A DNA stretch of 42,231 nt from Desulfobacterales bacterium (lineage in GTDB: Bacteria; Desulfobacterota; Desulfobacteria; Desulfobacterales; UBA5852). Shown one piece after another: positions 4,053 to 42,028 of this stretch. The position numbers and the translations under genes are program-made. Location: assembly GCA_050124295.1 (NCBI GenBank), contig JASFFM010000001.1:1-42231 (forward strand), read 5' to 3'. Below the pieces are notes generated by a model, which was given only the letters and a program-made list of their open reading frames with translations, did not search any database and was not told the DNA's origin. Numbering within the stretch: the stretch's first letter is position 1; each line of letters begins with the position of its first letter.

Positions 4053-4062
4053 GCTGGCGCCC

Positions 4063-9054: not shown

Positions 9055-9070
9055 GGATGATAATCGACCC

Positions 9071-10150
9071 ATGATCTATCATTTTCTCTATCCACTGCAT
9101 ACCAGCATCTCGGCTTTCAATGTTTTCCGTTACATTACGTTCCGGACCATTTACGCCAGCCTGACGGCCTTTTTCATCTGCTTCCTGCTGGGCCCCTGGG
9201 TCATCAAGCGACTGCACCAGATGCAGGTCGGACAGTTTATCCGCGACGACGGCCCTGAGACCCACTACAAGAAATCCGGCACCCCGACCATGGGAGGTGT
9301 TCTGATCATTGGTGCGGTCGTGTTGGCGACCCTTCTGTGGGCCAACCTGGCCAATTTCTACACCTGGATCAGCCTGCTGGTGATTGTGGGGTTCGGGGCC
9401 ATCGGGTTTGCGGACGATTACCTGATGCAGGTGAAAAAACGCAGCAAGGGGCTCGGCGCCAAAGAGAAGCTGCTCCTGCAGACGCTGCTGGCGGCCATCT
9501 GCGGTGTGCTCTTCTTCACCCACGCGGAGTTTTCCACCAAGGTGACCGTGCCGTTTCTGAAGAATATTCAGCCCGATTTAGGCTGGGGTTACATCGTGTT
9601 TACGATTCTGGTGATCGTGGGCGCCTCCAATGCGGTCAATCTCACCGACGGTCTGGACGGTCTGGCCATTGGTCCGCTGATTATTGTGGCCGCCACCTAC
9701 ATGGTATTTGCCTACGTCACCGGCCATGTCGAATTTGCCGAATACTTGCAGATCAACTATGTGAGCGGGGTTGGCGAGATTGCGGTTTTCTGTGGAGCCC
9801 TGGTGGGCGCCGGCTTGGGATTTCTGTGGTTCAATGCCTATCCGGCCCAGGTGTTCATGGGCGATGTGGGCTCCCTGGCGCTGGGCAGTTCCATGGGTGC
9901 CGTTGCCATCATTACCAAGCAGGAAATTCTGCTGGTGCTGGTGGGGGGACTTTTTGTCATTGAAACGCTTTCGGTCATCTTTCAAGTGGGCTACTTCAAG
10001 CTGACCCACGGCCGCCGGATTTTCCGCATGGCCCCCCTGCACCATCATTTCGAACTCAAGGGGTGGCCGGAGCCCAAGGTCATTGTCCGTTTCTGGATCA
10101 TCGCCATCGCTTTGGCGCTGGTGGCGTTGAGCACCTTGAAGCTGCGTTAA
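9071..10150 (+). CDS. mraY: Phospho-N-acetylmuramoyl-pentapeptide transferase
   Basis: Polytopic membrane protein with [13 protein letters not shown] and APLHHHFE motifs. Confidence 0.96.
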
Positions 10151-10334
10151 GCGAGGCGGTGTATCCACTCGCCGCCGCGACCCAGAGGATACCCAGAGCA
10201 GGGGCGAGTTCTTGGGGATCCAGATCGTCTTCTAAAAAGAAAGCTGCCCCAGGCATCCGAACAAATGTTGTTGAAGCGTAAAACCGTGCCCTGTCCTCCA
10301 CCCGAGGGGAGGGTTTGGGACCCAAGCCGAGAAT

Positions 10335-11717
10335 GTGGGCATGATAGATCGTTGGACATCCGATCAGTTGCGCAATAAAGCCGTCACCGTCGTGGGGCTG
10401 GGCCGCAGCGGTCTGGCCGCCGCCCGCTTCTGCCATGCCGCGGGAGCACGGGTGACGGCATCCGAAGCCGGCCCGGCGGAAATGTTTTCCGAGGCCATCC
10501 ACGCGCTGGAACCGGGCGGTGTGGCGCTGGAATTCGGTGGTCATCGACCGCAAACGTTCGCCGCGGCCGACCTGATCGTTCTAAGCCCGGGTGTCCCGCA
10601 CACCATTGTCCCCCTCGAGGCCGCGCGGCAGCAGGGCGTCCCGGTGATGGGCGAGATGGAACTGGCCGCCCGCTTCATCGCCGAGCCCATCGCGGCGGTG
10701 ACCGGGACCAATGGCAAAACCACGACCACCGAACTTTTGGGCGCCATGCTGAAGGCTTCGGGCATGACGGTCTTCGTGGGCGGCAACATCGGCAACCCGC
10801 TGATTGAATACGTCGAGGGTGGACCGACAGCGGACTGGCTGGTGGTCGAGGTCAGCAGTTTTCAGTTGGACACGATGGTCCATTTCCGACCCCGCATCGG
10901 CTGTCTGCTGAATATCAGCGAAGATCACCTGGACCGCTATCCGGATTTTGAGGCCTATGCCGCCGCCAAATGGCGCCTGTTTCAAAATCAGGCCACCGGC
11001 GACACAGCGATCATCAACGCCGCCCTGGCGACAGGGGGTGCGCCCACGCGGCGGCTGCCCGGACGGATCTTGTATTTCAATGGCGCCCCGAACGGCCGAC
11101 AGGCCGCCGCCCGTATGGGCAAGGGCCGCCTGGAACTGGATCTCGGAGACCAGCAATGTCGGGCGAGCGTGGACTTATCCGCGATGCAACTGGTCGGCCG
11201 TCACAACGAAGAAAACGCCGCCGCGGCCGGCCTGGCGGCCCTGGCGGCCGGTGCTTCGCCCTCGGGTATCCAGACCGGCTTGAACACCTTTCGCGGATTG
11301 CCCCACCGGGTGACCTTTGTGCGCGAGCGGCAAGGCGTCCGGTACTACGATGACTCCAAAGCCACCAACGTGGATGCGGTGGCACGCGCCCTGGACAGCT
11401 TCCAGGCACCGGTGATTCTGATCATGGGCGGGCGCGCGAAGGGCGGTCGCTACGATATTTTGAAATCGCGCCTGCTGGCGAAGGTGCGTCAACTGATTGT
11501 TCTGGGCGAGGCGGCCCCCGCCATTGCCGAGGTCTTTCGCCCCCTGGTGCCGGTTGATCGGGCGGCCGATATGGCCTCGGCGGTGCGCCTGGCGGCCGAT
11601 GTGGCCCGGGAGGGGCAGGTGGTGCTGCTGTCGCCGGCCTGCGCCAGTTTTGACATGTACGAGAGCTACCACCAACGCGGAGAAGACTTTTGCCATCACG
11701 TGCAACAGCTGGCCTGA
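10335..11717 (+). CDS. murD: UDP-N-acetylmuramoylalanine--D-glutamate ligase
   Basis: VVGLGRSGLAAARF Rossmann N-terminus and TGTNGKTTT P-loop. The start is either GTG at 10335 or the in-frame ATG at 10341. Confidence 0.93.
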   Translation: MGMIDRWTSDQLRNKAVTVVGLGRSGLAAARFCHAAGARVTASEAGPAEMFSEAIHALEPGGVALEFGGHRPQTFAAADLIVLSPGVPHTIVPLEAARQQGVPVMGEMELAARFIAEPIAAVTGTNGKTTTTELLGAMLKASGMTVFVGGNIGNPLIEYVEGGPTADWLVVEVSSFQLDTMVHFRPRIGCLLNISEDHLDRYPDFEAYAAAKWRLFQNQATGDTAIINAALATGGAPTRRLPGRILYFNGAPNGRQAAARMGKGRLELDLGDQQCRASVDLSAMQLVGRHNEENAAAAGLAALAAGASPSGIQTGLNTFRGLPHRVTFVRERQGVRYYDDSKATNVDAVARALDSFQAPVILIMGGRAKGGRYDILKSRLLAKVRQLIVLGEAAPAIAEVFRPLVPVDRAADMASAVRLAADVAREGQVVLLSPACASFDMYESYHQRGEDFCHHVQQLA

Positions 11718-12859
11718 GAAAACGCCCATCACAGCGTGCGGCCGCCGGGACAAGACCGTCGGGCTACGATACCCGTCTGCTGTTTCCGGTGCTGTTTCTG
11801 GTCGGCATCGGCATCGTGATGGTTTACTCCGCCAGCTCGGCGCTGGCCTTAAAAAAATTCGGCAGCAGCTATTTTTTCATCAAGAAACAAGCCCTTTTCG
11901 CACTGCTGGGTCTGATGGCCCTGGTGGCAGGCCGCCATTTTCCTTATCGTGGCCTGCGTCTCATGGCCTACCCGGCCATTGCCCTAGCCCTGGGACTGCT
12001 GCTGGCGGTTCATCTCACCGGCTTCGGTCACACCGCCGGCGGGGCAACACGCTGGCTCAAGGTGGGCGGGTTTACCCTGCAGCCCTCGGAGCTGGCCCGT
12101 ATGGCCCTGATTCTTTACCTGGCATACTCGATGAGCAAAAAACAAGACCGCATCCGGGAATTTTCGATTGGTTTTGTACCCCACGTCATGGTGCTGATCG
12201 TGCTGATCGTACCGATTCTCCTGCAGCCCGATTTCGGCACGGTGATCATCCTGACGCTCATCACCGGTATCATGCTCTTTGTGGGTGGTGTTCCCCTGCG
12301 CTTTCTGGCCCTCGCCGGTCTGGCCGTAGCACCGCTGGGATGCTACCTGCTGGTTTCGGCCGATTACCGGGTCAAGCGCCTGATGAGTTTTCTCAATCCC
12401 TGGGAATCCCCCACATCGGACGGCTATCAGACCATTCATTCGCTGATGGCCTTCGGGTCGGGCGGCTTGTGGGGGACCGGTATCGGCAAAAGCCTGCAGA
12501 AACTGTTTTATCTGCCCGAACCCCATACCGATTTTATTTTTTCGGTCATCGGCGAGGAGTTCGGGCTGGTGGGCGTCACCACTATCGTCATGCTTTACGG
12601 CCTTATCGTCTGGCGGGGCATCGCCATCGCCCGCCGCACAGCGGACCCCTTCGGCGCCCTGCTGTCCTTCGGTCTGACAACGGCCATTGCCCTGCAGGTG
12701 GGCATCAATATGGGGGTTACCCTGGGACTGCTGCCCACCAAGGGACTCACCCTGCCCTTTTTGAGTTACGGCGGCACCTCCCTCGTTTTGAACATGGCCG
12801 CGGTGGGAATTTTGATGAATATCGGCATATCGCCATGGATCAAAAGGACGTCCCGATGA
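11690..12859 (+). CDS. ftsW: SEDS-family peptidoglycan glycosyltransferase FtsW
   Basis: About 10 TM segments and a PEPHTDFIFSVIGEEFGLVG motif. The TTG start at 11690 overlaps the murD end and is uncertain. No in-frame ATG exists upstream of the first TM helix. Confidence 0.9.
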   Translation: MPSRATAGLRKRPSQRAAAGTRPSGYDTRLLFPVLFLVGIGIVMVYSASSALALKKFGSSYFFIKKQALFALLGLMALVAGRHFPYRGLRLMAYPAIALALGLLLAVHLTGFGHTAGGATRWLKVGGFTLQPSELARMALILYLAYSMSKKQDRIREFSIGFVPHVMVLIVLIVPILLQPDFGTVIILTLITGIMLFVGGVPLRFLALAGLAVAPLGCYLLVSADYRVKRLMSFLNPWESPTSDGYQTIHSLMAFGSGGLWGTGIGKSLQKLFYLPEPHTDFIFSVIGEEFGLVGVTTIVMLYGLIVWRGIAIARRTADPFGALLSFGLTTAIALQVGINMGVTLGLLPTKGLTLPFLSYGGTSLVLNMAAVGILMNIGISPWIKRTSR

Positions 12860-13986
12860 CGGCAGCGGCGCATATCGTGATCACCGGCGGCGGTACCGGC
12901 GGTCACCTGTTTCCGGGCATCGCCATCGCGCGGGCCTTTCAACGGCATCGGGCCGATACCGCGATCTTGTTTGTGGGCACCGGCCGCGATCTGGAGCGCC
13001 GTGTGGTCGGCCAGGCCGGCTACCGGCACGCCGTCATCCGGGTGCGCGGTCTCAAGGGAATGGGGGTTTGGCGGCAGTTGCGCGCCCTGGCATCGCTGCC
13101 CGGTGCCCTGCTGCGGGCGGCGACCATCCTGTGGGGCTTCCGACCTGCCGTGGTGGTCGGCGTGGGCGGTTACGCCGCCGGCCCGGTCTGCTTGGCCGCG
13201 CGACTCCTGGGCATCCCGGTTTGCCTGCAGGAGCAGAATTCATTGCCCGGCATCACCAATCGCTGGCTGGGCCGCGTGGCCCGTCGCATTTACACCTCTT
13301 TCAAGGAGAGTCATGCGCACTTTCCGGCCGACAAAGTGATCCTTGTGGGCAATCCGGTACGGGAGGAAATCATTGCCCTGGGCCATGGCGGCGCGCCCCG
13401 CGAGTCCCATCGGCCGTTTACCGTCCTGGTGGCGGGCGGCAGCCAGGGCGCCCGCAGCATCAATACGGCCCTCATCGATATGCTCGCACATGTTGACGAT
13501 CCCGGATCACTCCATTTGATCCATCAATGCGGCCCGGACGATCTCGATCGTGTCCGCGAGGCTTATCGAACCGCGGGTGTGGCCGCCCGGGCGGCCGCCT
13601 TTTTCAATGACATGGACCGCCAGTATGCCCAGGCGGACCTGGCGGTATGCCGGGCGGGAGCGACCACCGTGGCCGAGCTGACCTGTATCGGGATCCCGGC
13701 CATATTCATCCCCTTTCCCCATGCCGCGGACAACCATCAGGAGATCAACGCCCGTGCGCTGGTGTCCGCGCACGCTGCCGAGATGATCCTTGAAGCGGCG
13801 CTCAGCGGCCGAGCGCTGTGGCAGCATATCCGCCAGCTGCGCGATGATCCCGGACGCCGGGCGGCGATGGCGCAAAATGCCCGTGCCCTGGGTCACCCCG
13901 AGGCAGCGGCCACGATAGTGGCCGACATTTGGGCCCATGTCCTGCAACCAACGCCCGCGCTCGGGCGCCCAGAAAACGAAAGCTGA
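12856..13986 (+). CDS. murG: UDP-N-acetylglucosamine--N-acetylmuramyl-(pentapeptide) pyrophosphoryl-undecaprenol GlcNAc transferase
   Basis: MTAAAHIVITGGGTGGHLFPG N-terminus. The ATG at 12856 forms an ATGA overlap with the ftsW stop. The 829-aa ORF in the track is this frame left open upstream by GC bias. Confidence 0.93.
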   Translation: MTAAAHIVITGGGTGGHLFPGIAIARAFQRHRADTAILFVGTGRDLERRVVGQAGYRHAVIRVRGLKGMGVWRQLRALASLPGALLRAATILWGFRPAVVVGVGGYAAGPVCLAARLLGIPVCLQEQNSLPGITNRWLGRVARRIYTSFKESHAHFPADKVILVGNPVREEIIALGHGGAPRESHRPFTVLVAGGSQGARSINTALIDMLAHVDDPGSLHLIHQCGPDDLDRVREAYRTAGVAARAAAFFNDMDRQYAQADLAVCRAGATTVAELTCIGIPAIFIPFPHAADNHQEINARALVSAHAAEMILEAALSGRALWQHIRQLRDDPGRRAAMAQNARALGHPEAAATIVADIWAHVLQPTPALGRPENES

Positions 13987-13988
13987 GC

Positions 13989-15359
13989 ATGTATCAGAAA
14001 ACCTATCATATCCATTTCGTGGGCATCGGTGGCATCGGCATGAGCGGCATTGCCGAACTGCTGATCAACTTGGGGTATCAGGTTTCCGGATCGGATTTGA
14101 AATCCACCGACCTTACCCGGCGTCTGGCCGCCCTGGGCGGCACCATTTTCGAGGGCCATGCCGCCGAAAATGTCCGCGGTGCCGATGTGGTCGTTATTTC
14201 TTCCGCCGTCAGTCAAACCAACGACGAGGTCGTCGCGGCCCGCAGCCTGTCCATTCCCGTGATCCCCCGGGCAGAGATGCTGGCGGAACTCATGCGCCTC
14301 AAATACAGCGTGGCCGTGGCGGGCGCCCACGGCAAAACCACGACGACCTCCATAGTGGGCTCCGTGCTGGCGGCCGGCGATCTGGACCCTACCATCGTGA
14401 TCGGCGGCAAGCTGCGCAGCGTCGACACCAACGCCGTGCTGGGCCAGGGCAACTTCATCGTCGCCGAGGCCGATGAAAGCGATGGATCGTTTCTGAAAAT
14501 GTCCCCCTCGATCGCGGTGGTCACCAACATCGACCGGGAACACCTGGATTTTTATGATGACCTGGCAACGATTGTCGAAACCTTTGCGCGCTTTATCGAC
14601 CGCATCCCATTTTATGGGCTGGCAGTCCTGTGCCTGGACAACGAACACGTCCAGAATCTGATTCCCCACATCGGCAAACGCTATACCACCTACGGGGTCA
14701 GCAGCCAGGCCGACTACCAGGCCCGTGAGATTAAGTGCGAAGGCCTCACCAGCCGTTATCAAGTCTACCACCGGGGCGAGCGCTTGGGCGCCATCCGACT
14801 CAGTCTGCCCGGTATGCACAATGTTTACAACTCGCTGGCCAGTGTTGCCGTCGGTATCGAACTGGACATCCCCTTCGACACCATCAAGACCGCCCTGGAG
14901 AATCTGCATGGGGTCCGTCGACGACTGGAAATCAAGGGCTCGGCCAAAGGTATCACCGTCATCGATGACTACGCCCACCACCCCACCGAGATCAAAACCA
15001 CCCTGCAGTCGGTTCGCTGCAGTTGGCCCGACCAGAGAATCGTGGGCGTTTTCCAGCCCCATCGCTATACGCGAACCCGGGCCCTATTCGACGAATTCAC
15101 ACGGGCGTTCTACGAGACCGACCAGCTCGTTCTGGTGCCGATTTACAGCGCCGGCGAAACCCTCATCGAGGGGGTCAGTCATACCCTGCTCGGCGATGGG
15201 ATCCAGGCCCACGGCCACAAGAACGTCTTCTGTACGAACAGCTTCGAGGAGGCCCTGACAGGACTCCGGGAAAAACTCCGCGAGGGGGATATTGTCATGA
15301 CAATGGGGGCCGGCGATATCTGGAAACTTGGGGAAACGCTGCTGCAGCAGCTTAGCTGA
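13989..15359 (+). CDS. murC: UDP-N-acetylmuramate--L-alanine ligase
   Basis: MYQKTYHIHFVGIGGIGMSGIAE and GAHGKTTTTS. Start trimmed to the ATG at 13989, 2 nt after the murG stop. Confidence 0.95.
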   Translation: MYQKTYHIHFVGIGGIGMSGIAELLINLGYQVSGSDLKSTDLTRRLAALGGTIFEGHAAENVRGADVVVISSAVSQTNDEVVAARSLSIPVIPRAEMLAELMRLKYSVAVAGAHGKTTTTSIVGSVLAAGDLDPTIVIGGKLRSVDTNAVLGQGNFIVAEADESDGSFLKMSPSIAVVTNIDREHLDFYDDLATIVETFARFIDRIPFYGLAVLCLDNEHVQNLIPHIGKRYTTYGVSSQADYQAREIKCEGLTSRYQVYHRGERLGAIRLSLPGMHNVYNSLASVAVGIELDIPFDTIKTALENLHGVRRRLEIKGSAKGITVIDDYAHHPTEIKTTLQSVRCSWPDQRIVGVFQPHRYTRTRALFDEFTRAFYETDQLVLVPIYSAGETLIEGVSHTLLGDGIQAHGHKNVFCTNSFEEALTGLREKLREGDIVMTMGAGDIWKLGETLLQQLS

Positions 15360-15393
15360 CCCTCTGAAGGGCAACGCCAAAGCAGGTAGCATT

Positions 15394-16266
15394 ATGTTTG
15401 GACGCCAAAAACGCATCCGCCGGAACACCTATAAAGGTCGGCGCCGCAACCGCCGCCGCGCCATCTGGACCCGCACCCTGGCAACGGTCAAGATGGTGCT
15501 GGCCGCGACGGTTTTTGCGCTGTTCAACCTGATGCTGATTTTCGGCCACGACTGGATTACCCAGACGGAGCGCCTGCGGATTCGCTCGGTCACGGTCGAG
15601 GGATGTGCCCGCCTGACCCCGGCGATGGTCAAAGCCCAGGCCGGGCTGACGGAAGAGGGCAACATTCTGGGGGTCAACCTGGCGACCACCCGCAAACGCC
15701 TTCTGGCGCATCCCTGGATCGCCCAGGCACGCGTCACCCGGGATATTCCCGATCGGCTGCAAATTCATATCCAGGAACATAGCTGCCTGGCCGTGCTGGA
15801 TCTCGGCCGCCGGTTCCTGATGAATGCGGAGGGCCAGGTCTTCAAAGAACTCAAACCTGGTGAAACCCAGGACGTACCGCTGGTCAGCGGGTTGACCTAC
15901 GTCGATCTCGGGCTTCATGCGGACGCACCAACGGCGGTCATGCGCGCGGTCATGGACATTCTCCAGCCCCGGCGGCGCTCCAGGCGACACGAACTCGCGG
16001 GCCGGATTCGCGAGATCCACGCCGACCCGGTCCTGGGTCTGACCCTCTTTCAGGCGGACAGCAATCAACCGCTTGGCTACCGCACCGTCATGCTCGGGTT
16101 CGACGATTTTGATGAAAAATTTGCCCGGTTGCAAAAAATCGACGCCTATCTGCAGAACCATCGCCGCTATGCTGGATTCAGGTCCATCGATTTAAACAAC
16201 CCCCACCGAATTATTGTCAATCCGGTGGAGACGCGCGCCGCGCAGGACCCTCGGAAGGAGGTTTAG
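15394..16266 (+). CDS. ftsQ: Cell division protein FtsQ (POTRA domain)
   Basis: Very basic cytoplasmic tail (RQKRIRRNTYKGRRRNRRR), a single TM helix, then a POTRA-like IRSVTVEG segment. Position between murC and ftsA. Confidence 0.85.
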   Translation: MFGRQKRIRRNTYKGRRRNRRRAIWTRTLATVKMVLAATVFALFNLMLIFGHDWITQTERLRIRSVTVEGCARLTPAMVKAQAGLTEEGNILGVNLATTRKRLLAHPWIAQARVTRDIPDRLQIHIQEHSCLAVLDLGRRFLMNAEGQVFKELKPGETQDVPLVSGLTYVDLGLHADAPTAVMRAVMDILQPRRRSRRHELAGRIREIHADPVLGLTLFQADSNQPLGYRTVMLGFDDFDEKFARLQKIDAYLQNHRRYAGFRSIDLNNPHRIIVNPVETRAAQDPRKEV

Positions 16267-16267
16267 G

Positions 16268-17494
16268 ATGCAGGGACGAGACAATCTGATTGTGGGCCTT
16301 GATATCGGAACGACGAAGATCTGCTGTGTGGTCGGAGAAGTCTCCCAGGGCGAGGTCAATATTATCGGTATCGGTACCCATCCCTCGATCGGGCTGCGCA
16401 AGGGGGTTGTCGTCAATATCGAATCCACGGTGGATTCCATCAAAAAGGCCGTGGAGGAAGCCGAACTGATGGCCGGCTGCGAGATTTCCTCGGTCTACAC
16501 GGGCATTGCCGGGGGACATATCACCGGTTTCAACAGCCGCGGCATCGTTGCCATCAAAGGGCCTGAGATTACCGAAAATGATGTGGAGCGCGTCATCGAT
16601 GCCGCCCGCGCAGTGGCTATTCCCATGGACCGGGAGGTCATCCACGTCCTTCCCCAAGAGTATATCGTCGACGAGCAAGCCGGCATTCAGAACCCGGTGA
16701 GTATGGCCGGTGTGCGGCTGGAGGCCAAGATTCATATCGTCACCGGGGCGGTGACGTCGGCCCACAACATCGTCAAGTGCTGCAACCGTTCGGGGCTCGA
16801 CGTGTGCGACATCGTCCTCGAGTCCCTGGCTTCAGGCGAGGCCGTGCTCACTGGAGAAGAAAAAGAACTGGGAACCGCCCTGCTGGATTTAGGGGGCGGA
16901 ACCACCGACCTGGCCATTTTTTCGGACAAAAACATCCGCCACACCTTCGTGCTGGCCTTGGGGGGCAACAACTTGACCAACGACATTGCCATCGGTCTGC
17001 GCTCACCCCATATGGATGCCGAAAAGATCAAAACCCGATACGGCACCTGCCTTTCCAAAAGCGTCAGCGCCGACGACATGATCGAAGTCCCCGGCATGGG
17101 AGGACGCGAGGCCCGCAAACTGCCGCGCCAGATCCTGGGCGAGATTCTGGAGCCCCGCATGGAGGAAATCTTCACCTTGGCCAAACGGGAAGTCTTCCGG
17201 GCCGGCCTGGAAAACCACATTCCCTCCGGTCTGGTCCTCACGGGGGGCACGTCGTTGTTGGAAGGTGCCACGGAAATCGCCGAATCCGTCTTTAACCTGC
17301 AGACCCGGCTCGGCAAACCCCAGGGCATCACCGGTCTGGTGGATGTGGTCAACAACCCCATGTATGCCACCGGCGTAGGCCTGGTGCTTTATGGCGCCAA
17401 GAATCAAACCGCCAAAAAATTCCGGATTCGCGACGCCCATATTTTTAACCGCATCGTGACCCAGATGAAACGCTGGTTCAAGGATGTCGTCTAA
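16268..17494 (+). CDS. ftsA: Cell division protein FtsA
   Basis: Actin-like ATPase N-terminus LIVGLDIGTTKICCVVGE and LDLGGGTTD. C-terminal amphipathic helix (RIVTQMKRWFKDVV). The ATG at 16268 is 1 nt after the ftsQ stop. Confidence 0.95.
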   Translation: MQGRDNLIVGLDIGTTKICCVVGEVSQGEVNIIGIGTHPSIGLRKGVVVNIESTVDSIKKAVEEAELMAGCEISSVYTGIAGGHITGFNSRGIVAIKGPEITENDVERVIDAARAVAIPMDREVIHVLPQEYIVDEQAGIQNPVSMAGVRLEAKIHIVTGAVTSAHNIVKCCNRSGLDVCDIVLESLASGEAVLTGEEKELGTALLDLGGGTTDLAIFSDKNIRHTFVLALGGNNLTNDIAIGLRSPHMDAEKIKTRYGTCLSKSVSADDMIEVPGMGGREARKLPRQILGEILEPRMEEIFTLAKREVFRAGLENHIPSGLVLTGGTSLLEGATEIAESVFNLQTRLGKPQGITGLVDVVNNPMYATGVGLVLYGAKNQTAKKFRIRDAHIFNRIVTQMKRWFKDVV

Positions 17495-17579
17495 CCGGCA
17501 TGACAAATTAGCCGACGGTCATCGATGGCATCGTGCCGACCGCCGGTTCAAACCATCCAATCGGATAGAGGGGGGAACT

Positions 17580-18764
17580 ATGTTTACTTATGTCGACAAT
17601 GAAAATTCCGCCAAGATCAAAGTTATCGGCGTTGGCGGCGCCGGCGGAAACGCCATCAACAACATGATTTCATCCAATCTCCAGGGGGTGAAATTTATCG
17701 CCGCCAACACCGACGCCCAGGCCCTGGAAGTATCCAAAGCACCGATTAAAATTCAATTGGGTGAGCGACTGACAGAGGGTCTGGGCGCCGGCGCCAATCC
17801 GGATGTCGGCCGGGAGGCGGCCATCGAAACCACCGATGCGATCCGCAGTGCCCTGGAAGGCAGCCACATGGTGTTCATCACGGCCGGCCTGGGCGGCGGG
17901 ACCGGTACAGGCGCAGCCCCGGTGATTGGTGAAATCTGTAAGGAGTTGGGCATCCTGACCGTGGCAGTGGTTTCCAAACCGTTTTCGTTCGAGGGCAAGA
18001 AACGCTCCCTCCAGGCCGATATGGGCCTGGAGAGCCTCAAACAAACGGCCGATACGGCCATAACCATCAACAACGACCGCCTGCGCGGCCTGGCCTCCAA
18101 AAAAGCCACCATGCTGGAGATGTTCCGGCGGGCCGACGAGGTGCTGCTGCATTCCGTCAAAGGCATCACGGATTTGATCATGATGCCGGGTCTGGTGAAC
18201 CTCGATTTTGCCGATGTCAAGGCCACCATGTCCAAAGCCGGCATGGCCATCATGGGCATCGGAACGGCCAGCGGCGAAAACCGGGCCGTGGAAGCCGCCG
18301 AACGGGCCATCTCCCATCCGCTGCTGGAAGACGTTTCCATCACCGGCGCCACCGGGGTTCTGATGAACATCACGAGCACCAGCGAGCTGACCATGGAAGA
18401 AATGACCGAAGCCTCGGACCGCATCTACAATGAAGTCGGCGAAGATGCCGATATCATCTGGGGTACGGTGGTGGACGACAGCCTGGGGGATGAGATGCGC
18501 GTGACGGTCATCGCCACCGGCATCGGGGGCAGCGCTCCCCAGGAAACCCCCGTCAAGATCGTCGATGAAACCTACGGCGGTAAGCTGCGCCCGGTTACGG
18601 TGAACGACCTCGGCCATGTCGAGGACTACGAAGAGCCGGCTTTCATGCGGCGGCGCAAGGTGGCCGGTGGATCCATGGGATCGCACCTGGGCGGTTTCGA
18701 GAGCGACGCCGTTGATGAGAGCGATCTGGATGTACCGACCTTTCTGCGGCGCAAGGCCGATTAG
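17580..18764 (+). CDS. ftsZ: Cell division GTPase FtsZ
   Basis: IKVIGVGGAGGNAINNM, tubulin signature GGGTGTGAAPVI, conserved C-terminal peptide DLDVPTFLRRKAD. The ATG at 17580 is preceded by GAGGGGGGA. Confidence 0.97.
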   Translation: MFTYVDNENSAKIKVIGVGGAGGNAINNMISSNLQGVKFIAANTDAQALEVSKAPIKIQLGERLTEGLGAGANPDVGREAAIETTDAIRSALEGSHMVFITAGLGGGTGTGAAPVIGEICKELGILTVAVVSKPFSFEGKKRSLQADMGLESLKQTADTAITINNDRLRGLASKKATMLEMFRRADEVLLHSVKGITDLIMMPGLVNLDFADVKATMSKAGMAIMGIGTASGENRAVEAAERAISHPLLEDVSITGATGVLMNITSTSELTMEEMTEASDRIYNEVGEDADIIWGTVVDDSLGDEMRVTVIATGIGGSAPQETPVKIVDETYGGKLRPVTVNDLGHVEDYEEPAFMRRRKVAGGSMGSHLGGFESDAVDESDLDVPTFLRRKAD

Positions 18765-21451: not shown

Positions 21452-22735
21452 ATGATCAACAATGTATTCAGCCGTTCAGCCAGTGAAACCATCCACTACG
21501 AGCTGCTTCATCAAACCCCGCAGGGCCTGCAGCACATCACCAGTGCCGAGACCGCCGTTCTTCTCATTGAAGAAAAACTCGAACGCCAGTCCCAGCTGGC
21601 CTTGAAAGTCGGTGATAGCGTGCAAACGGGTCAAAAGATAGTACCCTTTAGCGACCGCCCGGCCTATGCGATTTCGAGCGTAACCGGCACCGTGGCGGCC
21701 ATCCGGCCCATGAACGGTGATTTCGGCAAGCATTTCACGGCCATCGATATTTCCCTGGCGGAGGCCGAAATTGTGGCGGAAGGCCCGGGCGAGATGGAAC
21801 CGACCCTGGCCAATCTCACCGGATGGCTGGCCGGCGCCCCCGGAAATCCGCCCCTGCATCTTTTCGCTGCCGTTGATCACGGCATCCACACCCTGGTCGT
21901 GGCCGGTGTCGATGCCGACCTTCTGGTGGCCACCAACCAGTTTGTCATCAAATCGGAACTAGAGGCCGTCAACCGGGGCATTGATGTTTTAAAAAGCGCC
22001 ACCGGCGTCGACCAGGTGGCCATCGCCGTGCCCCGTGATCTGGTGCAGGGGTTCGGCCATACCGGCGCCAGCGAACTCAAGGCGGTAGCGCCCGATTATC
22101 CGGCCGCCAATCCCAAATTGATCATCTACGAGGCCTTCGGCCGGGAAATCCCGGCCGGGAAATCATGTGAAGACATGGGCTTTGCCTTTTTCAGCGCCGA
22201 AGCGGTGGCTTCCATCGGCAAGGCTTTTGCCACCGGCCGGGTTCCCCATGAAAAAACCATTACCCTGGTGGACAAAAACGGCCGCAAAACCATCCTCTCG
22301 GCCCGTATCGGCACACCCATCGCGGATGTTCTGGCCGCCCACGGGATCGAAACGGGCAGCATGGACCGCCTGGTCACGGGCGGCCCCATGACCGGCATGG
22401 CCATCTTCGACGAGCAGATGCCGATCAAGGCCGACACCGACGCTATCCTGGTGCAGGACGCCAGCGACGTATCCCTGGTCTCCGATTATCCCTGTATCAA
22501 TTGCGGGGAATGTGTTCGGGCCTGTCCCACCCGGGTGCCGGTCAACATGCTGGTGCGCTTTCTGGAAGCCGGCCAATACGAGGAAGGTGCCGACCTTTAC
22601 GACCTTTATTCCTGCGTTGATTGCGGCTTATGCAGTTTCGTATGCGTGGCCCGCATTCCCATCTTTCAATATATCAAACTGGCCAAATACGAACTTTCCC
22701 GACTGACGGCAGCGGAGGCCTCGAATGAGCAGTAA
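21452..22735 (+). CDS. rnfC: Rnf complex subunit C (divergent; NADH/FMN motifs degenerate)
   Basis: RnfC_N-like LKVGDSVQTGQKI, LVTGGPMTGMAI, and two ferredoxin motifs (CINCGECVRACP and CVDCGLCSFVC). Position ahead of rnfDGEAB. Confidence 0.85.
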   Translation: MINNVFSRSASETIHYELLHQTPQGLQHITSAETAVLLIEEKLERQSQLALKVGDSVQTGQKIVPFSDRPAYAISSVTGTVAAIRPMNGDFGKHFTAIDISLAEAEIVAEGPGEMEPTLANLTGWLAGAPGNPPLHLFAAVDHGIHTLVVAGVDADLLVATNQFVIKSELEAVNRGIDVLKSATGVDQVAIAVPRDLVQGFGHTGASELKAVAPDYPAANPKLIIYEAFGREIPAGKSCEDMGFAFFSAEAVASIGKAFATGRVPHEKTITLVDKNGRKTILSARIGTPIADVLAAHGIETGSMDRLVTGGPMTGMAIFDEQMPIKADTDAILVQDASDVSLVSDYPCINCGECVRACPTRVPVNMLVRFLEAGQYEEGADLYDLYSCVDCGLCSFVCVARIPIFQYIKLAKYELSRLTAAEASNEQ

Positions 22736-23684
22736 AAAAAAGTTCATCGTCTCGCATGCGCCCTTCTGGCATAACGGCAGCAATGTTGCCGAAAGGCACT
22801 ACGGCATGCTGCTGGCCGCCATGCCGGCCGTGGCATTGGGCATCGTGTACTATGGTTTTCCCGCCGTGGCGGTCATCGCCCTATCGATCTCCAGCGCTAT
22901 TTTCTGGGAATGGCTGATGTGCCGGTTCACCAAACGTACCATGACCGTCGGCGATGGCAACGCCGCCCTGCTGGGTCTGCTGTTTGCCATGCTGATCCCG
23001 GCCACCACGCCCTGGTGGGTGGTGCTCACGGGGACCCTCCTGACGATGGTTATCGGCCTGCACATTTTCGGCGGTATTGGCAGCAACCCCTTTCATCCGG
23101 TGGCCGTGGCCATGATGATGCTGACCGTCTCCTGGGCCGAATTTATGGATTTCAACGCCGCCCTGGTCAACTATGATTTCGCGTTCAATGCTGTGTATCC
23201 GCTGAGCCTCTCCAAAAACCTCGGCACGGCTGCCGTCGCTGATTTTACAACGCTCAACCTTCTGCTGGGCAGGCAAGTGGGCGGCATCGGCAGTACTTTC
23301 GGACTCGGTCTTATCGGGGGCGGGCTCTATTTGATGGCCAAAGGCTATATCCGCTGGGAAATCAGCCTGTCTTTTCTGGGCGGCATTTTTCTATCGGCAC
23401 TCGCTTTTCACCTGGCGGCGCCGGCCCAGTACGCCGGCCCCATGTTTCATCTGCTGACAGGGTACACCCTGATCGGCGCCTTTTTCCTCCTGCCGGAGAG
23501 CGCTTCTTCGCCGGTCAATCCGATCCCCATGGTGATTTACGGGGCCGGGGCCGCTATTATGACCATGCTGATTCGCAATATCGGTATGTATCATGACGGT
23601 GTTTTGCTGGCTGTGCTGTTGATGAATCTCGTTAATCCACTGCTGGACAAAATCAGACCGCAGGCTTTGGGAAAGGTGGCTTAA
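22725..23684 (+). CDS. rnfD: Rnf complex subunit D (NqrB/RnfD family, divergent)
   Basis: Polytopic membrane protein with SHAPFWHNG, FGGIGSNPFHP, HLLTGYTLIGAFFLL and NLVNPLLDK segments colinear with RnfD/RsxD. 11-nt overlap with rnfC. Confidence 0.88.
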   Translation: MSSKKKFIVSHAPFWHNGSNVAERHYGMLLAAMPAVALGIVYYGFPAVAVIALSISSAIFWEWLMCRFTKRTMTVGDGNAALLGLLFAMLIPATTPWWVVLTGTLLTMVIGLHIFGGIGSNPFHPVAVAMMMLTVSWAEFMDFNAALVNYDFAFNAVYPLSLSKNLGTAAVADFTTLNLLLGRQVGGIGSTFGLGLIGGGLYLMAKGYIRWEISLSFLGGIFLSALAFHLAAPAQYAGPMFHLLTGYTLIGAFFLLPESASSPVNPIPMVIYGAGAAIMTMLIRNIGMYHDGVLLAVLLMNLVNPLLDKIRPQALGKVA

Positions 23685-23685
23685 C

Positions 23686-24264
23686 ATGGGTGAAATGATC
23701 AAGATGGTTGTCGTGCTGACCTTTCTGAGTTCGCTATCGGGCGGGGTGCTGGCCTACGTGAAAGAGGGTACCAGAGAACAAATCGACATGCAGGTTTTAC
23801 AATTGGTCAAGGGGCCGGCCATCAAAACCATTTTCAAGGATGCCACCAACGACCCGGTGGCCGATCGCTTCAGTATCGAAGAGGATGGGAGTAAATACGA
23901 CATGTTCGTTGCCAAGGTGGACGGCAAGGACATGGTCGCCTTTGAAACCTTTGGCAAGGGCTATGGTGGCGATATCGGCCTGGTGGTCGCCTTCGACGTG
24001 GCCGAGGACAAGATTTACGGGGTCGGTGTGACCACGCTCAGCGAAACGGCCGGGCTGGGCTCCAAAGCCAAAGAGGACCCCAAATTTGCGGCCCAGTTCG
24101 CCGGTGTCGATGCCAAAGGGCCGATTGAGGTCGGCAATCCGATCAATGCTTTGAGCGGGGCCACGATCACCTCGCGGGCGGTCTGTTCGGCGGCCACCGA
24201 TGCGGGCGCCGTCTATGAACGGCTGAAACCCCAGATCGAAAAACAACTGCAAGCTTTTAAATAA
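23686..24264 (+). CDS. rnfG: Rnf complex subunit G (FMN_bind domain)
   Basis: N-terminal TM helix, GYGGDIGLVVAF, and an intact flavinylation motif LSGATITSRAV. Confidence 0.9.
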   Translation: MGEMIKMVVVLTFLSSLSGGVLAYVKEGTREQIDMQVLQLVKGPAIKTIFKDATNDPVADRFSIEEDGSKYDMFVAKVDGKDMVAFETFGKGYGGDIGLVVAFDVAEDKIYGVGVTTLSETAGLGSKAKEDPKFAAQFAGVDAKGPIEVGNPINALSGATITSRAVCSAATDAGAVYERLKPQIEKQLQAFK

Positions 24265-24277
24265 CAGGGAGAGCCCC

Positions 24278-24907
24278 ATGGCGAAATCGATCACGCATGA
24301 ATTTGTTAAGGGTCTATGGGAAGAGGTTCCCCCGTTCCGGCTGGTTTTGGGGCTCTGCCCCGTTCTGGGGGTTACCACCAAGATGCAGTTCGGCATCGGC
24401 ATGGGATTGGCCACGACCTTCGTTCTGGTTTTTGCCAATTTTCTGGTTTCCCTGCTAAGAAAGGTCATCCCGGCCAAAGTCCGTATCGCCTGCTTCATTA
24501 TCATTATCGCGACCTTCGTGATCCTGGTGGAACTGCTGATGCAGGCGTATGCCTACAAACTGTTTCTCGACCTGGGGCTTTTCATTCCCTTGATCGTGGT
24601 AAACTGCATCGTCCTGGGCCGCGCCGAAGCCTTCGCCTCCAAAAACGGCCTGTTCCTTTCGATTGCCGACGGACTGGGCATCGGCATCGGTTTTACCCTC
24701 TCCCTGGCAGCCCTTGGCGGTCTGCGTGAAATATTGGGGGCCGGCACCCTGACCGTTTGGGGCGCTCCCCTCTTCGATGGTCCCATTCTGAACATCGCCA
24801 ATTATTTTCCTGGATTCCGGCCATTCGAATTCATGGTTCAAGCCCCCGGCGCCTTCGTCTGCCTGGGCATCATGCTGTGCTTCATGAATATGGTGGGCAA
24901 AAAATAG
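24278..24907 (+). CDS. rnfE: Rnf complex subunit E
   Basis: GLCPVLGVTTKMQFGIGMGLATTFVL...VRIACFIIIIATFV, typical RnfE/NqrD. Confidence 0.92.
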   Translation: MAKSITHEFVKGLWEEVPPFRLVLGLCPVLGVTTKMQFGIGMGLATTFVLVFANFLVSLLRKVIPAKVRIACFIIIIATFVILVELLMQAYAYKLFLDLGLFIPLIVVNCIVLGRAEAFASKNGLFLSIADGLGIGIGFTLSLAALGGLREILGAGTLTVWGAPLFDGPILNIANYFPGFRPFEFMVQAPGAFVCLGIMLCFMNMVGKK

Positions 24908-24917
24908 GAGATTCCCC

Positions 24918-25493
24918 ATGGGCGACTATTTCACCCTGATCATCAGTTGTATCTTCGTCAACAACATCCTCCTGGCGCAATTTCTGGGGAACTGCCCCTT
25001 TTTCGGGACCTCCAAAAAAATGGAAACAGCCGTGGGCATGGCCATGGCGGTTGTCTTTGTCCTGGTCATGGCCGGTGTGATCACCTGGCTGATTTATACC
25101 TACTTACTCGCCGAATTGGGGCTCACTTACCTTCGCACCATCGCCTTCATTCTGGTGATCGCCTCCCTGGTGCAGTTCGTGGAGATGTTCCTGAAAAAAA
25201 GTATTCCTGCGCTGTATGCCGGCCTGGGGATCTTCCTGCCGCTGATTACGACCAATTGCGCCGTTTTTGGCGCCTGCGTCATCAATATCGACAAGGAATA
25301 TTCCTTCATGCAGGCATTGGTGGCTTCGTTCAGTTTCGCCGTGGGTTTCGGTCTGGCGCTGATTCTGTTCGCCGGCGTGCGGGAACGCATTCTGCTGGCC
25401 CGGGTGCCTCGCCCCCTGCAGGATACCTCCATCGCCCTGGTGACGGCCGGGATTATTTCCCTGTCTTTCTATGCGTTCAAGGGTATGGTATAA
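24918..25493 (+). CDS. rnfA: Rnf complex subunit A
   Basis: IFVNNILLAQFLGNCPFFGTSKKMETAVGMAMAVVFV, typical RnfA/NqrE. AGGAGA RBS. Confidence 0.92.
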   Translation: MGDYFTLIISCIFVNNILLAQFLGNCPFFGTSKKMETAVGMAMAVVFVLVMAGVITWLIYTYLLAELGLTYLRTIAFILVIASLVQFVEMFLKKSIPALYAGLGIFLPLITTNCAVFGACVINIDKEYSFMQALVASFSFAVGFGLALILFAGVRERILLARVPRPLQDTSIALVTAGIISLSFYAFKGMV

Positions 25494-38760: not shown

Positions 38761-39393
38761 CTATCCCTGGGCAAATTTCGCTTCCTGCTCGATCACCTTT
38801 TGCTTCAGCCGTTCGATCAGCTGATCCGGCGTTTCCTTGGATAAGATCTCCTTGAACTGGGAGCGGTAATTCTTTACCAGACTGACCCCTTCCACCTTCA
38901 CGTCATACACGCGCCAGGCCCCGTCTTTCTTCATCAGGCTGTAATCGACAGGGATGCGGTTGCGGGAAGACACGATGAAGGTGGATACCCGGGCCAGAGG
39001 TTTGGACTCGTGGATGGTCTCTTTACCAAATTCGATGGATTCGTCGCTATAGCCCCCCTGGATGCGATCCACATAAATATTGCCCAGTAACTCGGAGAAG
39101 ACCTGGGCAAATTCCGCCTGCTGGGCGTCATCAAATTTTCGCCAGTTGCGGGCCAGGGTACGCTTCGAGACCTCGCTGAAATCAAACACGGGCGCCACAA
39201 TGGCCCAAAATTCCTCGCGCTGCTGGGCCTTTAACTGGGCATCGTCGGAGTTGTATTTGGGATCCCGTAAAAGGGCCAGGGCCTCGTCCATGGGGGCCTT
39301 TAGCATATCGGACGGTTCACCGGCCGCCGCCGGCAGGCTGAATAGCAACAGCAGCATAGCAAAAGCCAATATCAGGCTGGATCGTTTTATCAT
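38761..39393 (-). CDS. mlaC: Periplasmic phospholipid-binding protein MlaC (Ttg2D/toluene tolerance family)
   Basis: Signal peptide MIKRSSLILAFAMLLLLFSLPAAAG. FDFSEVSKRTLARNWRKF...QQAEFAQVFSELL pattern of MlaC. Operon context with mlaEFD. Confidence 0.85.
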   Translation of the reverse strand: MIKRSSLILAFAMLLLLFSLPAAAGEPSDMLKAPMDEALALLRDPKYNSDDAQLKAQQREEFWAIVAPVFDFSEVSKRTLARNWRKFDDAQQAEFAQVFSELLGNIYVDRIQGGYSDESIEFGKETIHESKPLARVSTFIVSSRNRIPVDYSLMKKDGAWRVYDVKVEGVSLVKNYRSQFKEILSKETPDQLIERLKQKVIEQEAKFAQG

Positions 39394-39554: not shown

Positions 39555-40001
39555 TCAGACGCCGCCAAAAACATATTTGCTGATCAATTCTTCGATATCC
39601 ACGGCGGATTCCGTTTCGTAGATGGTGTCCCCGGCTTTCAGGACCAGATCGGAGCCCCCCGGACTCAATCGGATATACTTGTCACCGATCAGTCCCGCGG
39701 TCTTGACCGATGCGATCGTATCATCGCTAAGGGTGACATTGCCTTGAATTTTGATCTGCACGCGGGCCACCTGCTGTTCCGTATCCAGGACGATGGCTTC
39801 CACTTCACCGATGGGCACGCCGGCCATTTCCACCCGGGCGCCCTCTTTCAAGCCGGTCACGGACTCGAACTGGGCTTGCAGAGCATAATAATCCTGGCCC
39901 ATGATTTCCATCTTGCCCAGCTTTATGGTGAGGTAGCCGACACACAAGATCCCAATAAAGACAAACAGGCCAACCGCCACTTCAATCGACGTTTTTTTCA
40001 T
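39555..40001 (-). CDS. mlaD: MCE-domain protein MlaD
   Basis: N-terminal TM helix (IEVAVGLFVFIGILCVGYL), then an MCE fold pattern (FESVTGLKEGARVEMAGVPIGEV). ATG at 40001 after GGAG. Confidence 0.88.
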   Translation of the reverse strand: MKKTSIEVAVGLFVFIGILCVGYLTIKLGKMEIMGQDYYALQAQFESVTGLKEGARVEMAGVPIGEVEAIVLDTEQQVARVQIKIQGNVTLSDDTIASVKTAGLIGDKYIRLSPGGSDLVLKAGDTIYETESAVDIEELISKYVFGGV

Positions 40002-40015: not shown

Positions 40016-41224
40016 CTAACAAATACTGAATTGATAGAAAATCTCTTTATGCGCGAGGGCCTGGGCCAGGGATGCCTCTGAATGGACCTGGCCATCGACC
40101 TCCGCAAAGCCGGCACTGATGGCCATGCAATCTCCCGGACGTGACTGAATGTCCACCAGTTCGTGGCCCTTCAGGGCGCGTCCCAGCTTGGCGCAGACCA
40201 TCTTGGCCTGGGCCAGGCTGGTATACGGAAGCAGCAGCAGGATGGCGCCCGGCCCGATCAGGGTGCAGGTATCGGTGATCCGCAATTGACGCTGCACGCG
40301 ATCGGCAAAGCGCTGGACCACGCCCTGGGCTTCGATATCGCTGGCGGACAGGAGATCGGTCAGGTTCTCGATCGTCAGCACGACCAGCGCATACGGCACC
40401 TTGTGACGTTGCATACGCGCGATTTCGCCACTGAAATGCGCCTCCCAGGATCCGCTGCGGATGCTGTCCGAGGATTCGGCAGGCGCATTCTCGAACCCTT
40501 GAATGAACTCGAGCACCACCGGATCGGACAGGCGTTGCAGTTCGCTGGGGGCCCCGGCATAGATAATGCGTCCTTCATGCAGCATGGCAATCCGCTGGGA
40601 AAAATAGAATACATCCGGGATGTCATGGCTGATCAAAACTGCTGTAAATCCAAGCTTCTGTTGGTATTTAGAAATCATGCCGTGGACATTGTTTTTGCGA
40701 ATCGGGTCAAGTCCGGTGGTTGGCTCATCGAAAAGAACGACTTGCGGATCGGTTACCAAGGCCCGGGCCAAGGCCACGCGCTTCTTCATCCCCCCCGATA
40801 GCTGCGAGGGATACTCATCATCGATGTCCCCCAGATCCAGTTCGCGCATGCGGGCCTGCACGCGGGCTTGAACCTCGTCCGCTTTTAATCCACCGCGCTC
40901 CTGAATCGGCAAAGCGATATTTTCGTTCACGGTCATCGAATCGAAAAGGGCCGAATCCTGGAACATATAGCTAAATCGTCGCCGCAGGGCTCTGCGCGCC
41001 CGTCCCTTGAGATCGGTCAGATTCTGGCCATCAATCCAAATACGACCGGCATCGGGTTCCAACAGCCCGATGATGTGTTTCAGCAAAACGCTCTTGCCCC
41101 CGCCACTTTTACCGATAATCGTGGTGATCTGACCCTGGTAGATGTCCAGGTCGATGCCCCGCAAAACAGGATTGTCGTCGAATGATTTGGTGACGCCTTC
41201 AAATTGGATGAATGGTGTCTTCAT
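40016..41224 (-). CDS. mlaF: MlaF-type ABC ATPase with a C-terminal degenerate GGDEF-like domain
   Basis: Walker A GKSGGGKS, signature LSGGMKKRVALARAL, Walker B VVLFDEPTTGLD, H-loop ISHD. Residues about 258-402 are colinear with a GGDEF domain, but GGDEF is replaced by GPGAI and RxxD is retained (RITD). Confidence 0.85.
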   Translation of the reverse strand: MKTPFIQFEGVTKSFDDNPVLRGIDLDIYQGQITTIIGKSGGGKSVLLKHIIGLLEPDAGRIWIDGQNLTDLKGRARRALRRRFSYMFQDSALFDSMTVNENIALPIQERGGLKADEVQARVQARMRELDLGDIDDEYPSQLSGGMKKRVALARALVTDPQVVLFDEPTTGLDPIRKNNVHGMISKYQQKLGFTAVLISHDIPDVFYFSQRIAMLHEGRIIYAGAPSELQRLSDPVVLEFIQGFENAPAESSDSIRSGSWEAHFSGEIARMQRHKVPYALVVLTIENLTDLLSASDIEAQGVVQRFADRVQRQLRITDTCTLIGPGAILLLLPYTSLAQAKMVCAKLGRALKGHELVDIQSRPGDCMAISAGFAEVDGQVHSEASLAQALAHKEIFYQFSIC

Positions 41225-41227: not shown

Positions 41228-42028
41228 TTAGAGTAATAACGATGTCAGGATGTAATTGGTTACCAGCACCAGAACGCTGGAGAGGACCACCGCCGAAGTG
41301 GTCGAGATGCTGACACCCTTGGCGCCGAAATTATCCCCCTCGTGGGTGTAGTAGCCCTTGAAACAGCAAACCGTTATCAGAACGACGGCAAACACCAGGG
41401 ATTTGATAAACCCGCCCGTGACGTCCTCCATCTTGATGCTCGATTCAATCCGGGCGAAATAGATACCCGAGTCGATTCCCAGCAGGACAACGCCGGTCAG
41501 ATACCCTCCGATAATGCCCACCACGTCGGCCATGGCCGTCAGCAGGGGCATGCTGATCAGCGCGGCCGCCAGTTTGGGGCTCACCAGGAAGCGAATCGGA
41601 TCGATGTCCATGGTTTGCAGGGCATCGATTTGCTCGGAAATGCGCATGATACCCAGTTCGGCCGCCATGGCCGACCCCGCCCGTCCAATCAGCATGATGG
41701 CCGTCAATACGGGGCCCAATTCGCGAATCAAGGTCAGCGCCACCGCGGCCCCCAGGACACCTTCGGAGCCAAATTTGACCAGTGTGTAATAGCCATGCAG
41801 GCCCAAGACCATACCAATAAAAATGGCGGTCAGGCAGATGACCGAGACCGACTTCATACCAATGAAGTAAATCTGCTGAATCGTTTTACTCACCGGCGGG
41901 GGCCAGGTGAAAATCAGATAAAAGCTTTGCAGAAAAAACAAGGCATAGCGGCCCAGCCGACGCAGTCGGGCAATGACCATTTGCCCGAGCCAGGATAGCG
42001 GCAATAGGGGAAGGATCGGCGCGTTCAT
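41228..42028 (-). CDS. mlaE: ABC transporter permease MlaE
   Basis: Polytopic protein with the LIRELGPVLTAIMLIGRAGSAMAAELGIMRISEQIDAL motif typical of MlaE. Start trimmed to the ATG at 42028. Confidence 0.9.
   Translation of the reverse strand: MNAPILPLLPLSWLGQMVIARLRRLGRYALFFLQSFYLIFTWPPPVSKTIQQIYFIGMKSVSVICLTAIFIGMVLGLHGYYTLVKFGSEGVLGAAVALTLIRELGPVLTAIMLIGRAGSAMAAELGIMRISEQIDALQTMDIDPIRFLVSPKLAAALISMPLLTAMADVVGIIGGYLTGVVLLGIDSGIYFARIESSIKMEDVTGGFIKSLVFAVVLITVCCFKGYYTHEGDNFGAKGVSISTTSAVVLSSVLVLVTNYILTSLLL

Follow-up and report, generated by a model that had tools for sequence, protein, structure and literature searches.

The window analysed here is a stretch of 42,231 nucleotides from a Desulfobacterales bacterium (contig JASFFM010000001.1 of assembly GCA_050124295.1) which carries an mlaEFDC operon on its reverse strand. 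The mlaF gene of this operon encodes a composite protein, which consists of the ATP-binding cassette (ABC) ATPase of an MlaEFDC phospholipid transporter of the MCE type, a linker of about 16 residues and a C-terminal domain of the GGDEF fold. A first-pass annotation of the window had drawn attention to this extension and to a possible binding site for cyclic di-GMP (c-di-GMP) in it, and the length of the open reading frame (ORF), the coordinates and the peptide that it quoted are all exact on the reverse strand.

The Walker A (GKSGGGKS), signature (LSGGM) and Walker B (LFDEPT) motifs of the ATPase are intact in the window MlaF, and these motifs and the H-loop (SHD) are invariant across the family. 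In a Foldseek search the ATPase part superposes on the MlaF structures 6xgy, 6z5u and 7cha with template modelling (TM) scores of 0.84-0.88 when normalised to MlaF, at 33-35% sequence identity. Against the NCBIfam MlaF equivalog model NF008809 the protein reaches 177.9 bits and remains below the cut-off of 441 bits, and several other ABC models score similarly. For its assignment to the Mla system, the protein therefore depends on the operon context and the similarity to solved MlaF structures. The full-length AlphaFold2 (AF2) model has a predicted local distance difference test (pLDDT) score of 76, and MetN is among its best full-length structural matches. In the AF2 models the ATPase domain is followed by an additional folded domain, as is the case in ABC ATPases with a regulatory domain, and the linker between the two is located at the place of the C-terminal 'handshake' extension of Escherichia coli MlaF.

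The GGDEF-fold domain and its family

The homology of the extension to the GGDEF fold lies far beyond chance, and the identification made in the first-pass annotation is borne out by profile, alignment and structure searches alike. A profile built from 27 C-terminal domains of the family matches solved GGDEF domains, including 3ign (3.7e-20), WspR (2e-12) and PleD (2.8e-11), and all 27 members match the Pfam GGDEF family PF00990, the best of them at 1.5e-21. A precomputed PF00990 match is also present in most of the listed homologues below approximately 62% identity, and the C-terminal 162 residues of the window protein match the NCBIfam SiaD model at 3.4e-9. The hhalign comparison with the GGDEF domain of PleD (in a sequence essentially identical to the PDB entries) returns a probability of 98.1% and an E-value of 8e-14. 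It contains a single one-residue gap, located between beta1 and helix alpha3, just as the nearly gap-free match with a one-residue length difference had been described. The AF2 model of the domain by itself (pLDDT 77, predicted TM score 0.76) has the topology a0-b1-a1-a2-b2-b3-a3-b4-a4-b5, and the top 50 matches of this model in the PDB are GGDEF domains without exception (50/50). A STAS fold, which had been named as the alternative that would speak against a GGDEF domain, was rejected, with no STAS entry among the Pfam, PDB-sequence or Foldseek matches.

The MlaF-GGDEF architecture is already present in databases, where some of its members are misnamed 'diguanylate cyclase'. Many Desulfobacterales have this architecture as their usual form of MlaF, and it is also found in several other anaerobic lineages. 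About 120 homologues are listed at 50-83% identity, of which 116 are near full length (at least 395 residues). An exact look-up in public assemblies did not retrieve the window protein, and the closest relatives are P0001 (83% identity) and the protein of L003, a locus from a Desulfobacterales metagenome-assembled genome (MAG), at 78%. A scan of GTDB species genomes with a full-length alignment as query adds at least 63 loci with an MlaF of about 400 residues. Most of these belong to the Desulfobacterales, and the others come from MAGs labelled Syntrophaceae/Smithellaceae, Nitrospira/Thermodesulfovibrionales, Desulfovibrionaceae, Verrucomicrobia and Lentisphaeria. The 117 aligned proteins (the window protein and the 116 homologues) and the proteins of the 63 loci were pooled into a set of 180 non-identical long MlaF proteins that fall into two clades. 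Clade A holds 157 proteins, mostly from Desulfobacterales and including that of the window, which share the motif [R]-[ILV]-T-D-x-C. The deeper clade B holds 23 proteins, from MAGs with the labels just listed, with 'hFG.vGGFS.R' in the place of this RxxD motif and likewise without GG[DE]EF, and its domain passes the Pfam GGDEF threshold. As judged from these sequences, RxxD is confined to clade A. The deeper clade has Gly at the RxxD positions and therefore the fusion of MlaF with a GGDEF domain is older than the RxxD-containing clade, persists without it and does not depend on it. When 1.84 billion representative proteins were searched with the profile, the 11 top sequences examined, all of them matches that extend to the C-terminal end of the domain, proved to be MlaF fusions or fragments of these. 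From rank 11 onwards conventional GGDEF proteins are mixed in, some of which have tandem domains, and among the top sequences examined the degenerate subtype does not occur outside MlaF. One member of the family, P0152 (398 residues), has a Walker A of GPQGAGKR, a signature of LSGEAS and a Walker B of FDRP that is devoid of the catalytic Glu, and it has kept the GGDEF-like domain; by its sequence it may be an ATPase-dead paralogue.

Diguanylate cyclases depend on residues for Mg and guanine binding whose roles are described for PleD (PMC7288161), and in the window protein these are replaced throughout. The Mg-binding D327 of PleD corresponds to T284, a position that is occupied by T, S, K, A or R in the family, and D329 corresponds to E286. 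The guanine-binding N335 and D344 correspond to L292 and Q300, respectively, and the GGEEF motif (G368-F372) to GPGAI. The C-terminal helix is shortened and the chain ends before the equivalent of R446. Because of these replacements and the missing R446 equivalent, the domain is, by its aligned residues, devoid of every catalytic determinant of a diguanylate cyclase and cyclase activity is excluded. The first-pass annotation had called such activity unlikely on account of GPGAI and the Thr at the metal-binding position, and the loss extends to the N335 and D344 positions and to the whole family, in which GG[DE]EF is found in 0/117 aligned proteins, 0/63 genome loci and 0/180 of the pooled set. 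The commonest form at this position is GLNKI. The DxLTG and GH motifs and the N335 residue survive only in members at approximately 55% identity or less; at protein residues 245-258 (40451-40492) the sub-clade of the window (at least 56% identity) has neither the DxLTG start nor the GH motif. One homologue, P0057 of Desulfonema ishimotonii (positions 8001-9212 of locus L001), is named 'diguanylate cyclase' by both NCBI and UniRef. It carries GMNKI in place of GGDEF and is devoid of the metal-binding Asp, and on these sequence grounds an MlaF ATPase has been given the wrong name. Orthologues under this name cannot make c-di-GMP, and their database entries call for correction.

The I-site positions

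The inhibitory site (I-site) of GGDEF proteins binds a c-di-GMP dimer which cross-links two GGDEF domains by means of the RxxD motif of one and an arginine on helix a0 of the other, and in PleD the latter arginine is R313, which is supplied to the partner domain (PMC8041772, PMC7288161). All four I-site positions of PleD are occupied in the hhalign alignment with the window protein. R315 and D318 of the RITD motif align with R359 and D362 of PleD (and with the RQSD motif of 3ign), K346 with R390 and R270 with R313. The RITD motif is separated from GPGAI by the five residues TCTLI, which is the canonical spacing, and the first-pass annotation was right about this motif and its distance. The two basic positions, K346 and R270, had not been part of that annotation, and they too are occupied and conserved.

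In clade A, D318 is present in 157/157 proteins, R315 in 132/157 (84%), Lys or Arg at position 346 in 131/157 (83%) and R270 in 90%. In the 117 aligned sequences the corresponding values are 93% for R315, 93% for R270 and 85% for K346, and within the domain D318 and G372 alone are invariant. Conservation is higher in the I-site half than in the decayed active-site half, and the rest of the domain averages a column identity of about 55%. The I-site residues are retained in the sub-clade of the window even though the active-site hallmarks have decayed most completely there. Loss of R315 goes along with loss of Lys or Arg at position 346 in clade A (Fisher p=0.008, uncorrected for phylogeny). The first-pass annotation had named a lack of RxxD conservation in orthologous extended MlaF proteins as a refuting observation, and the outcome is mixed: in clade A the Asp is universal but the Arg is present in only 84%, and clade B with its glycines has no RxxD.

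Operon and neighbourhood

The four mla genes make up the whole operon, which contains no other genes and ends at a convergent gene for a 3-hydroxyisobutyrate-dehydrogenase-like protein. The genes are tightly packed: the stop codon of mlaE is separated from the ATG of mlaF by a spacer of 3 nucleotides, and 14 nucleotides lie between the mlaF stop codon and mlaD, whose ATG is preceded by a GGAG motif. The mechanical ORF of mlaE runs on to a GTG at 42085; its homologues, those of loci L001 and L002 among the ones compared, are 258-267 residues in length. The genes mlaD and mlaC lie directly downstream of the long mlaF in nearly all related loci, and the adjacency of mlaE is based on the window operon and the related loci L001 and L002. 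The coordinates of all features are collected in Table 1.

Table 1 The mla operon of the window and the features of its MlaF-GGDEF protein
Feature	Positions	Strand	Basis or remark
mlaE, permease gene	41228..42028	(-)	Pfam PF02405 MlaE 8.7e-78; likely ATG at 42028, giving 266 residues
mlaF-GGDEF fusion gene	40016..41224	(-)	ORF list; 402 residues and stop
ABC nucleotide-binding domain, residues 1-243	40496..41224	(-)	PF00005 1.8e-38; NCBIfam MlaF model 2.4e-52
Flexible linker, residues 244-259	40448..40495	(-)	AF2 pLDDT <50; predicted disordered
Degenerate GGDEF-fold domain, residues 260-402	40019..40447	(-)	Profile, hhalign, AF2, Foldseek
R270, helix a0	40415..40417	(-)	Aligns with PleD R313, secondary I-site Arg given to neighbouring domain
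T284	40373..40375	(-)	Place of Mg-binding Asp, PleD D327; profile and hhalign
RITD, R315-D318	40271..40282	(-)	RxxD primary I-site motif; aligns with PleD R359-D362 and 3ign RQSD
C320	40265-40267	(-)	Specific to RxxD clade
GPGAI, residues 324-328	40241..40255	(-)	GG(D/E)EF position (PleD G368-F372, GGEEF); sequence and hhalign
C344	40193-40195	(-)	Specific to RxxD clade
K346, helix a3	40187..40189	(-)	Aligns with PleD R390, third primary I-site residue
C366, just before strand b4	40127..40129	(-)	Half of co-varying Cys pair
C402, last residue of protein	40019..40021	(-)	Partner of C366
mlaD (MCE domain)	39555..40001	(-)	PF02470 3.6e-21; ATG at 40001, 148 residues
mlaC, periplasmic lipid carrier	38761..39393	(-)	PF05494 2.3e-43

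No STAS gene, as would encode an MlaB, is present in the window operon or in its syntenic counterparts L001 and L002, the loci to which this statement applies. The first-pass annotation had made the same observation for the operon and had linked it to a regulatory role of the new domain. The observation holds, but the absence of MlaB is not in itself remarkable, because MlaA, MlaB and MlaC reportedly have no more than a sparse distribution in diderm bacteria (PMC10665443). A short MlaF of about 250 residues that is 53-64% identical over the ATPase domain occurs in related Desulfobacterales and in some further MAGs (loci L041-L043, L046, L048, L050, L051, L053, L055, L061, L074, L076, L078, L079 and L081) and lies in the same mlaEFDC(A) type of operon as the long MlaF. 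The ORFs flanking one of these short genes, at L043, were scanned and include neither a STAS gene nor a separate GGDEF gene.

The rest of the window is ordinary core chromosome. A complete dcw cluster (mraW, ftsI, murE, murF, mraY, murD, murG, murC, ftsQ, ftsA and ftsZ), a radical-SAM gene and rnf-type electron-transport genes span positions 3114-18764 and 21452-25493, and the dcw and rnf stretches are syntenic with the Desulfobacterales MAG locus L002. The window also contains genes for an H+-pyrophosphatase and a GHMP-family kinase, pth, prs, serA, a tRNA and a putative gene for an L25 ribosomal protein, the latter assigned by synteny with L002. The mechanical ORF at 11497-13986 on the forward strand is 829 residues long and has MurG glycosyltransferase domains at residues 460-805 only. 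Its N-terminal part overlaps an ORF in another frame (11690-12859) which is probably ftsW. Most likely the long ORF has been extended too far and is not a fusion of FtsW with MurG. A protein of 225 residues encoded at 1640-2314 on the reverse strand contains an HD domain only (3.9e-16).

Function of the GGDEF-fold domain

By analogy with other ABC ATPases, the domain is likely to be a built-in C-terminal regulatory or dimerisation module of the MlaF ATPase. It may take over the role that is played in E. coli by MlaB and by MlaF's C-terminal extension, where the extension of 25 residues engages the partner subunit as well as MlaB in a handshake, and both keep MlaF on MlaE (PMC7367683). In the window protein the domain occupies the very place of this extension. 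For the clade of the window, and for this clade only, c-di-GMP is the most promising ligand on account of the full complement of PleD-type I-site residues, and the chance that the domain is an I-site-type c-di-GMP receptor there approaches, at best, an even one. In the proposed mechanism an intercalated c-di-GMP dimer would bind to R315, D318 and K346 in one domain and to the helix a0 residue R270 in its partner. The MlaF2 dimer would provide the two-fold geometry that reciprocal cross-linking of primary and secondary I-sites requires. The two domains would then be joined back to back, in the manner of PleD and DgcR under product inhibition, and this cross-link would limit how the two ATPase domains open and close. 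High c-di-GMP would in this way inhibit ATPase activity and transport, although the direction of the effect is a guess that draws on MetNI, ModBC and OpuCA. Taken as a whole, the explanation of the domain as a dead GGDEF module that regulates MlaF, binds c-di-GMP in the window's clade and inhibits the ATPase is the favoured one and is held tentatively, at somewhat less than an even chance.

Several observations weigh against this explanation. In a PF00990 search, one of the checks suggested in the first-pass annotation, the window protein by itself scores 13.8-16.8 bits (E=0.05 to 0.006), which is below the gathering score of 23.8, so that the check comes out in favour of the GGDEF assignment only at the level of the family members. 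R315 is replaced (by Y, S, G, A, E or others) in 16% of clade A and, by a count of listed motifs, in approximately 38% of the species-level genome representatives of this clade, and PleD position 390 is taken by Lys rather than Arg. D318 never changes, and the invariant T-D-x-C may be conserved for a structural or some other reason. The covariation p-values are uncorrected for phylogeny, and since the linker is predicted to be disordered, the geometry of the two domains is fixed by nothing. In clade B, with Gly at positions 315, 317 and 318, the domain is kept without RxxD and must therefore have a function that needs no I-site. This last point would be accommodated by a ligand-independent scaffold, in which the dead GGDEF domain dimerises, stabilises MlaF2 on MlaE and replaces MlaB and the handshake, with RxxD as an inherited or structural remnant. 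Such a scaffold would also be in keeping with the loss of R315 from a sizeable minority of clade A in which T317, D318 and C320 stay, with the absence of a STAS gene from the operon and its two syntenic counterparts, and with the requirement of E. coli MlaF for MlaB and the C-terminal extension for stable association (PMC7367683). Against it stand the retention of four separate I-site positions at 83-100% next to a decaying active-site half and the correlated loss of R315 and the basic residue at 346. A scaffold of this kind is moreover not obligatory, because related Desulfobacterales have a short MlaF in like operons and in L043 the flanking ORFs are without STAS. We regard the scaffold as a serious but doubtful alternative.

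The cysteines of the domain suggest a further, improbable reading, namely a thiol sensor in which C366 and C402 (in all clades) and C320 and C344 (in clade A) would form a redox-switchable disulfide, a metal site or an Fe-S site. It would possibly bridge the subunits, would make lipid transport in these anaerobes responsive to redox or oxygen stress and could coexist with c-di-GMP binding. C366 and C402 are conserved in 89% and 87% of clade A, respectively, where they are present or absent together (140 proteins with both, 11 with neither and 6 with one only; p=2e-14). Both are also found in 13/23 proteins of the clade without RxxD, of which 20/23 have the C-terminal Cys, and C402 is conserved at the extreme C-terminus next to variable positions. 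The names of most source MAGs are those of lineages known as anaerobes, and a redox or metal site at the conserved cysteines is possible on this sequence evidence. Against such a sensor, the counterparts of C344 in ordinary GGDEF domains are small or Cys core residues (A388 in PleD, Cys in 3ign), at least the C320/C344 pair may reflect plain packing, and the correlation of C366 with C402 is again uncorrected for phylogeny. The two Cys pairs vary independently, which argues against a single four-Cys site. Alternatively, the remains of the active site could sense GTP or some other nucleotide, as in CC3396/PdeA, or the domain could have another enzymatic activity, as in YybT/GdpP. Binding of GTP and hydrolysis of ATP both have precedents among degenerate GGDEF domains (PMC7288161), and such a function would fit the conservation of Q300 (90%, at the place of the guanine-binding D344) and N287 (98%) and the survival of DxLTG and GH in distant family members. 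But the window protein is replaced at the D327, E370 and N335 positions and in DxLTG, and its chain stops short of the R446 equivalent, which leaves this reading with a very small chance. An active diguanylate cyclase has nothing in its favour other than the name of P0057 and the Pfam GGDEF matches of relatives; it is rejected as practically inconceivable given the loss of the GG[DE]EF motif throughout the pooled set, P0057 included, and of the metal- and guanine-binding residues.

Returning to the favoured regulatory dead-GGDEF module, its significance would lie in the post-translational regulation of Mla, which is poorly understood and for which MlaB is the only known handle. A ligand-sensing domain inside MlaF would constitute a directly testable regulatory input, for which clade B, with its domain devoid of RxxD, and the relatives with a short MlaF provide natural controls. 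Were the ligand c-di-GMP, this may be the first link of c-di-GMP to outer-membrane lipid homeostasis, as the literature searched on Mla/MlaF, MlaB, ABC ATPases, GGDEF and c-di-GMP contains no such link, no MlaF-GGDEF protein and no control of Mla by c-di-GMP. An ABC lipid transporter would also be a new output class for degenerate-GGDEF receptors. In the most far-reaching version, which is unlikely as it stands, c-di-GMP would gate outer-membrane phospholipid trafficking in Desulfobacterales by way of the cross-linked dead GGDEF domains, with a second, redox or metal input that may be added through the ancient C366/C402 pair. The lipid asymmetry of the outer membrane, and vesicle release perhaps as well, would then be tied to the sessile or motile state that the second messenger sets.

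The window MlaF is reminiscent of the MlaF proteins of the MlaFEDB complexes of E. coli, Acinetobacter baumannii and Pseudomonas aeruginosa (6xgy, 6z5u and 7cha), with which it shares the ATPase fold, the ABC motifs and the operon with mlaE, mlaD and mlaC. Unlike E. coli MlaF with its short extension, it has approximately 135 extra residues in the form of a GGDEF fold, and unlike the MlaFEDB systems its operon has no MlaB/STAS gene. The domain itself resembles PelD, PopA and the BcsE/GIL-type I-site receptors in the shared GGDEF fold, the loss of GG(D/E)EF and the RxxD motif five residues upstream of it, PelD and PopA being degenerate-GGDEF receptors of the I-site type (PMC7288161). In contrast to this group, the window domain is fused to an ABC ATPase and not to a membrane, receiver or GAF module, it has Lys at position 390 and a shortened C-terminal helix, and its c-di-GMP binding is putative. 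With PleD and DgcR it has in common the I-site, all four PleD positions of which are matched, and two domain copies joined by a dimeric N-terminal module, which here is MlaF2. The differences are that there is no cyclase to inhibit, so that the output would be the ATPase, and that a flexible linker takes the place of a coiled-coil stalk. C-terminal regulatory domains are described for ABC ATPases, as in MetN with its ferredoxin-like C2 domain and ModC and MalK with their TOBE domains (PMC7367683). An extra domain after the ATPase is shared by the window MlaF with MetN (C2, methionine), ModC and MalK (TOBE) and OpuCA (CBS, c-di-AMP), which differ from it in the regulatory fold, here GGDEF, in the putative ligand and in being parts of solute importers rather than of a lipid transporter. 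The CBS domains of OpuCA are said to bind c-di-AMP, as Huynh and colleagues reportedly described in 2016, and would provide the cyclic-dinucleotide precedent for the control of an ABC transporter through its ATPase.

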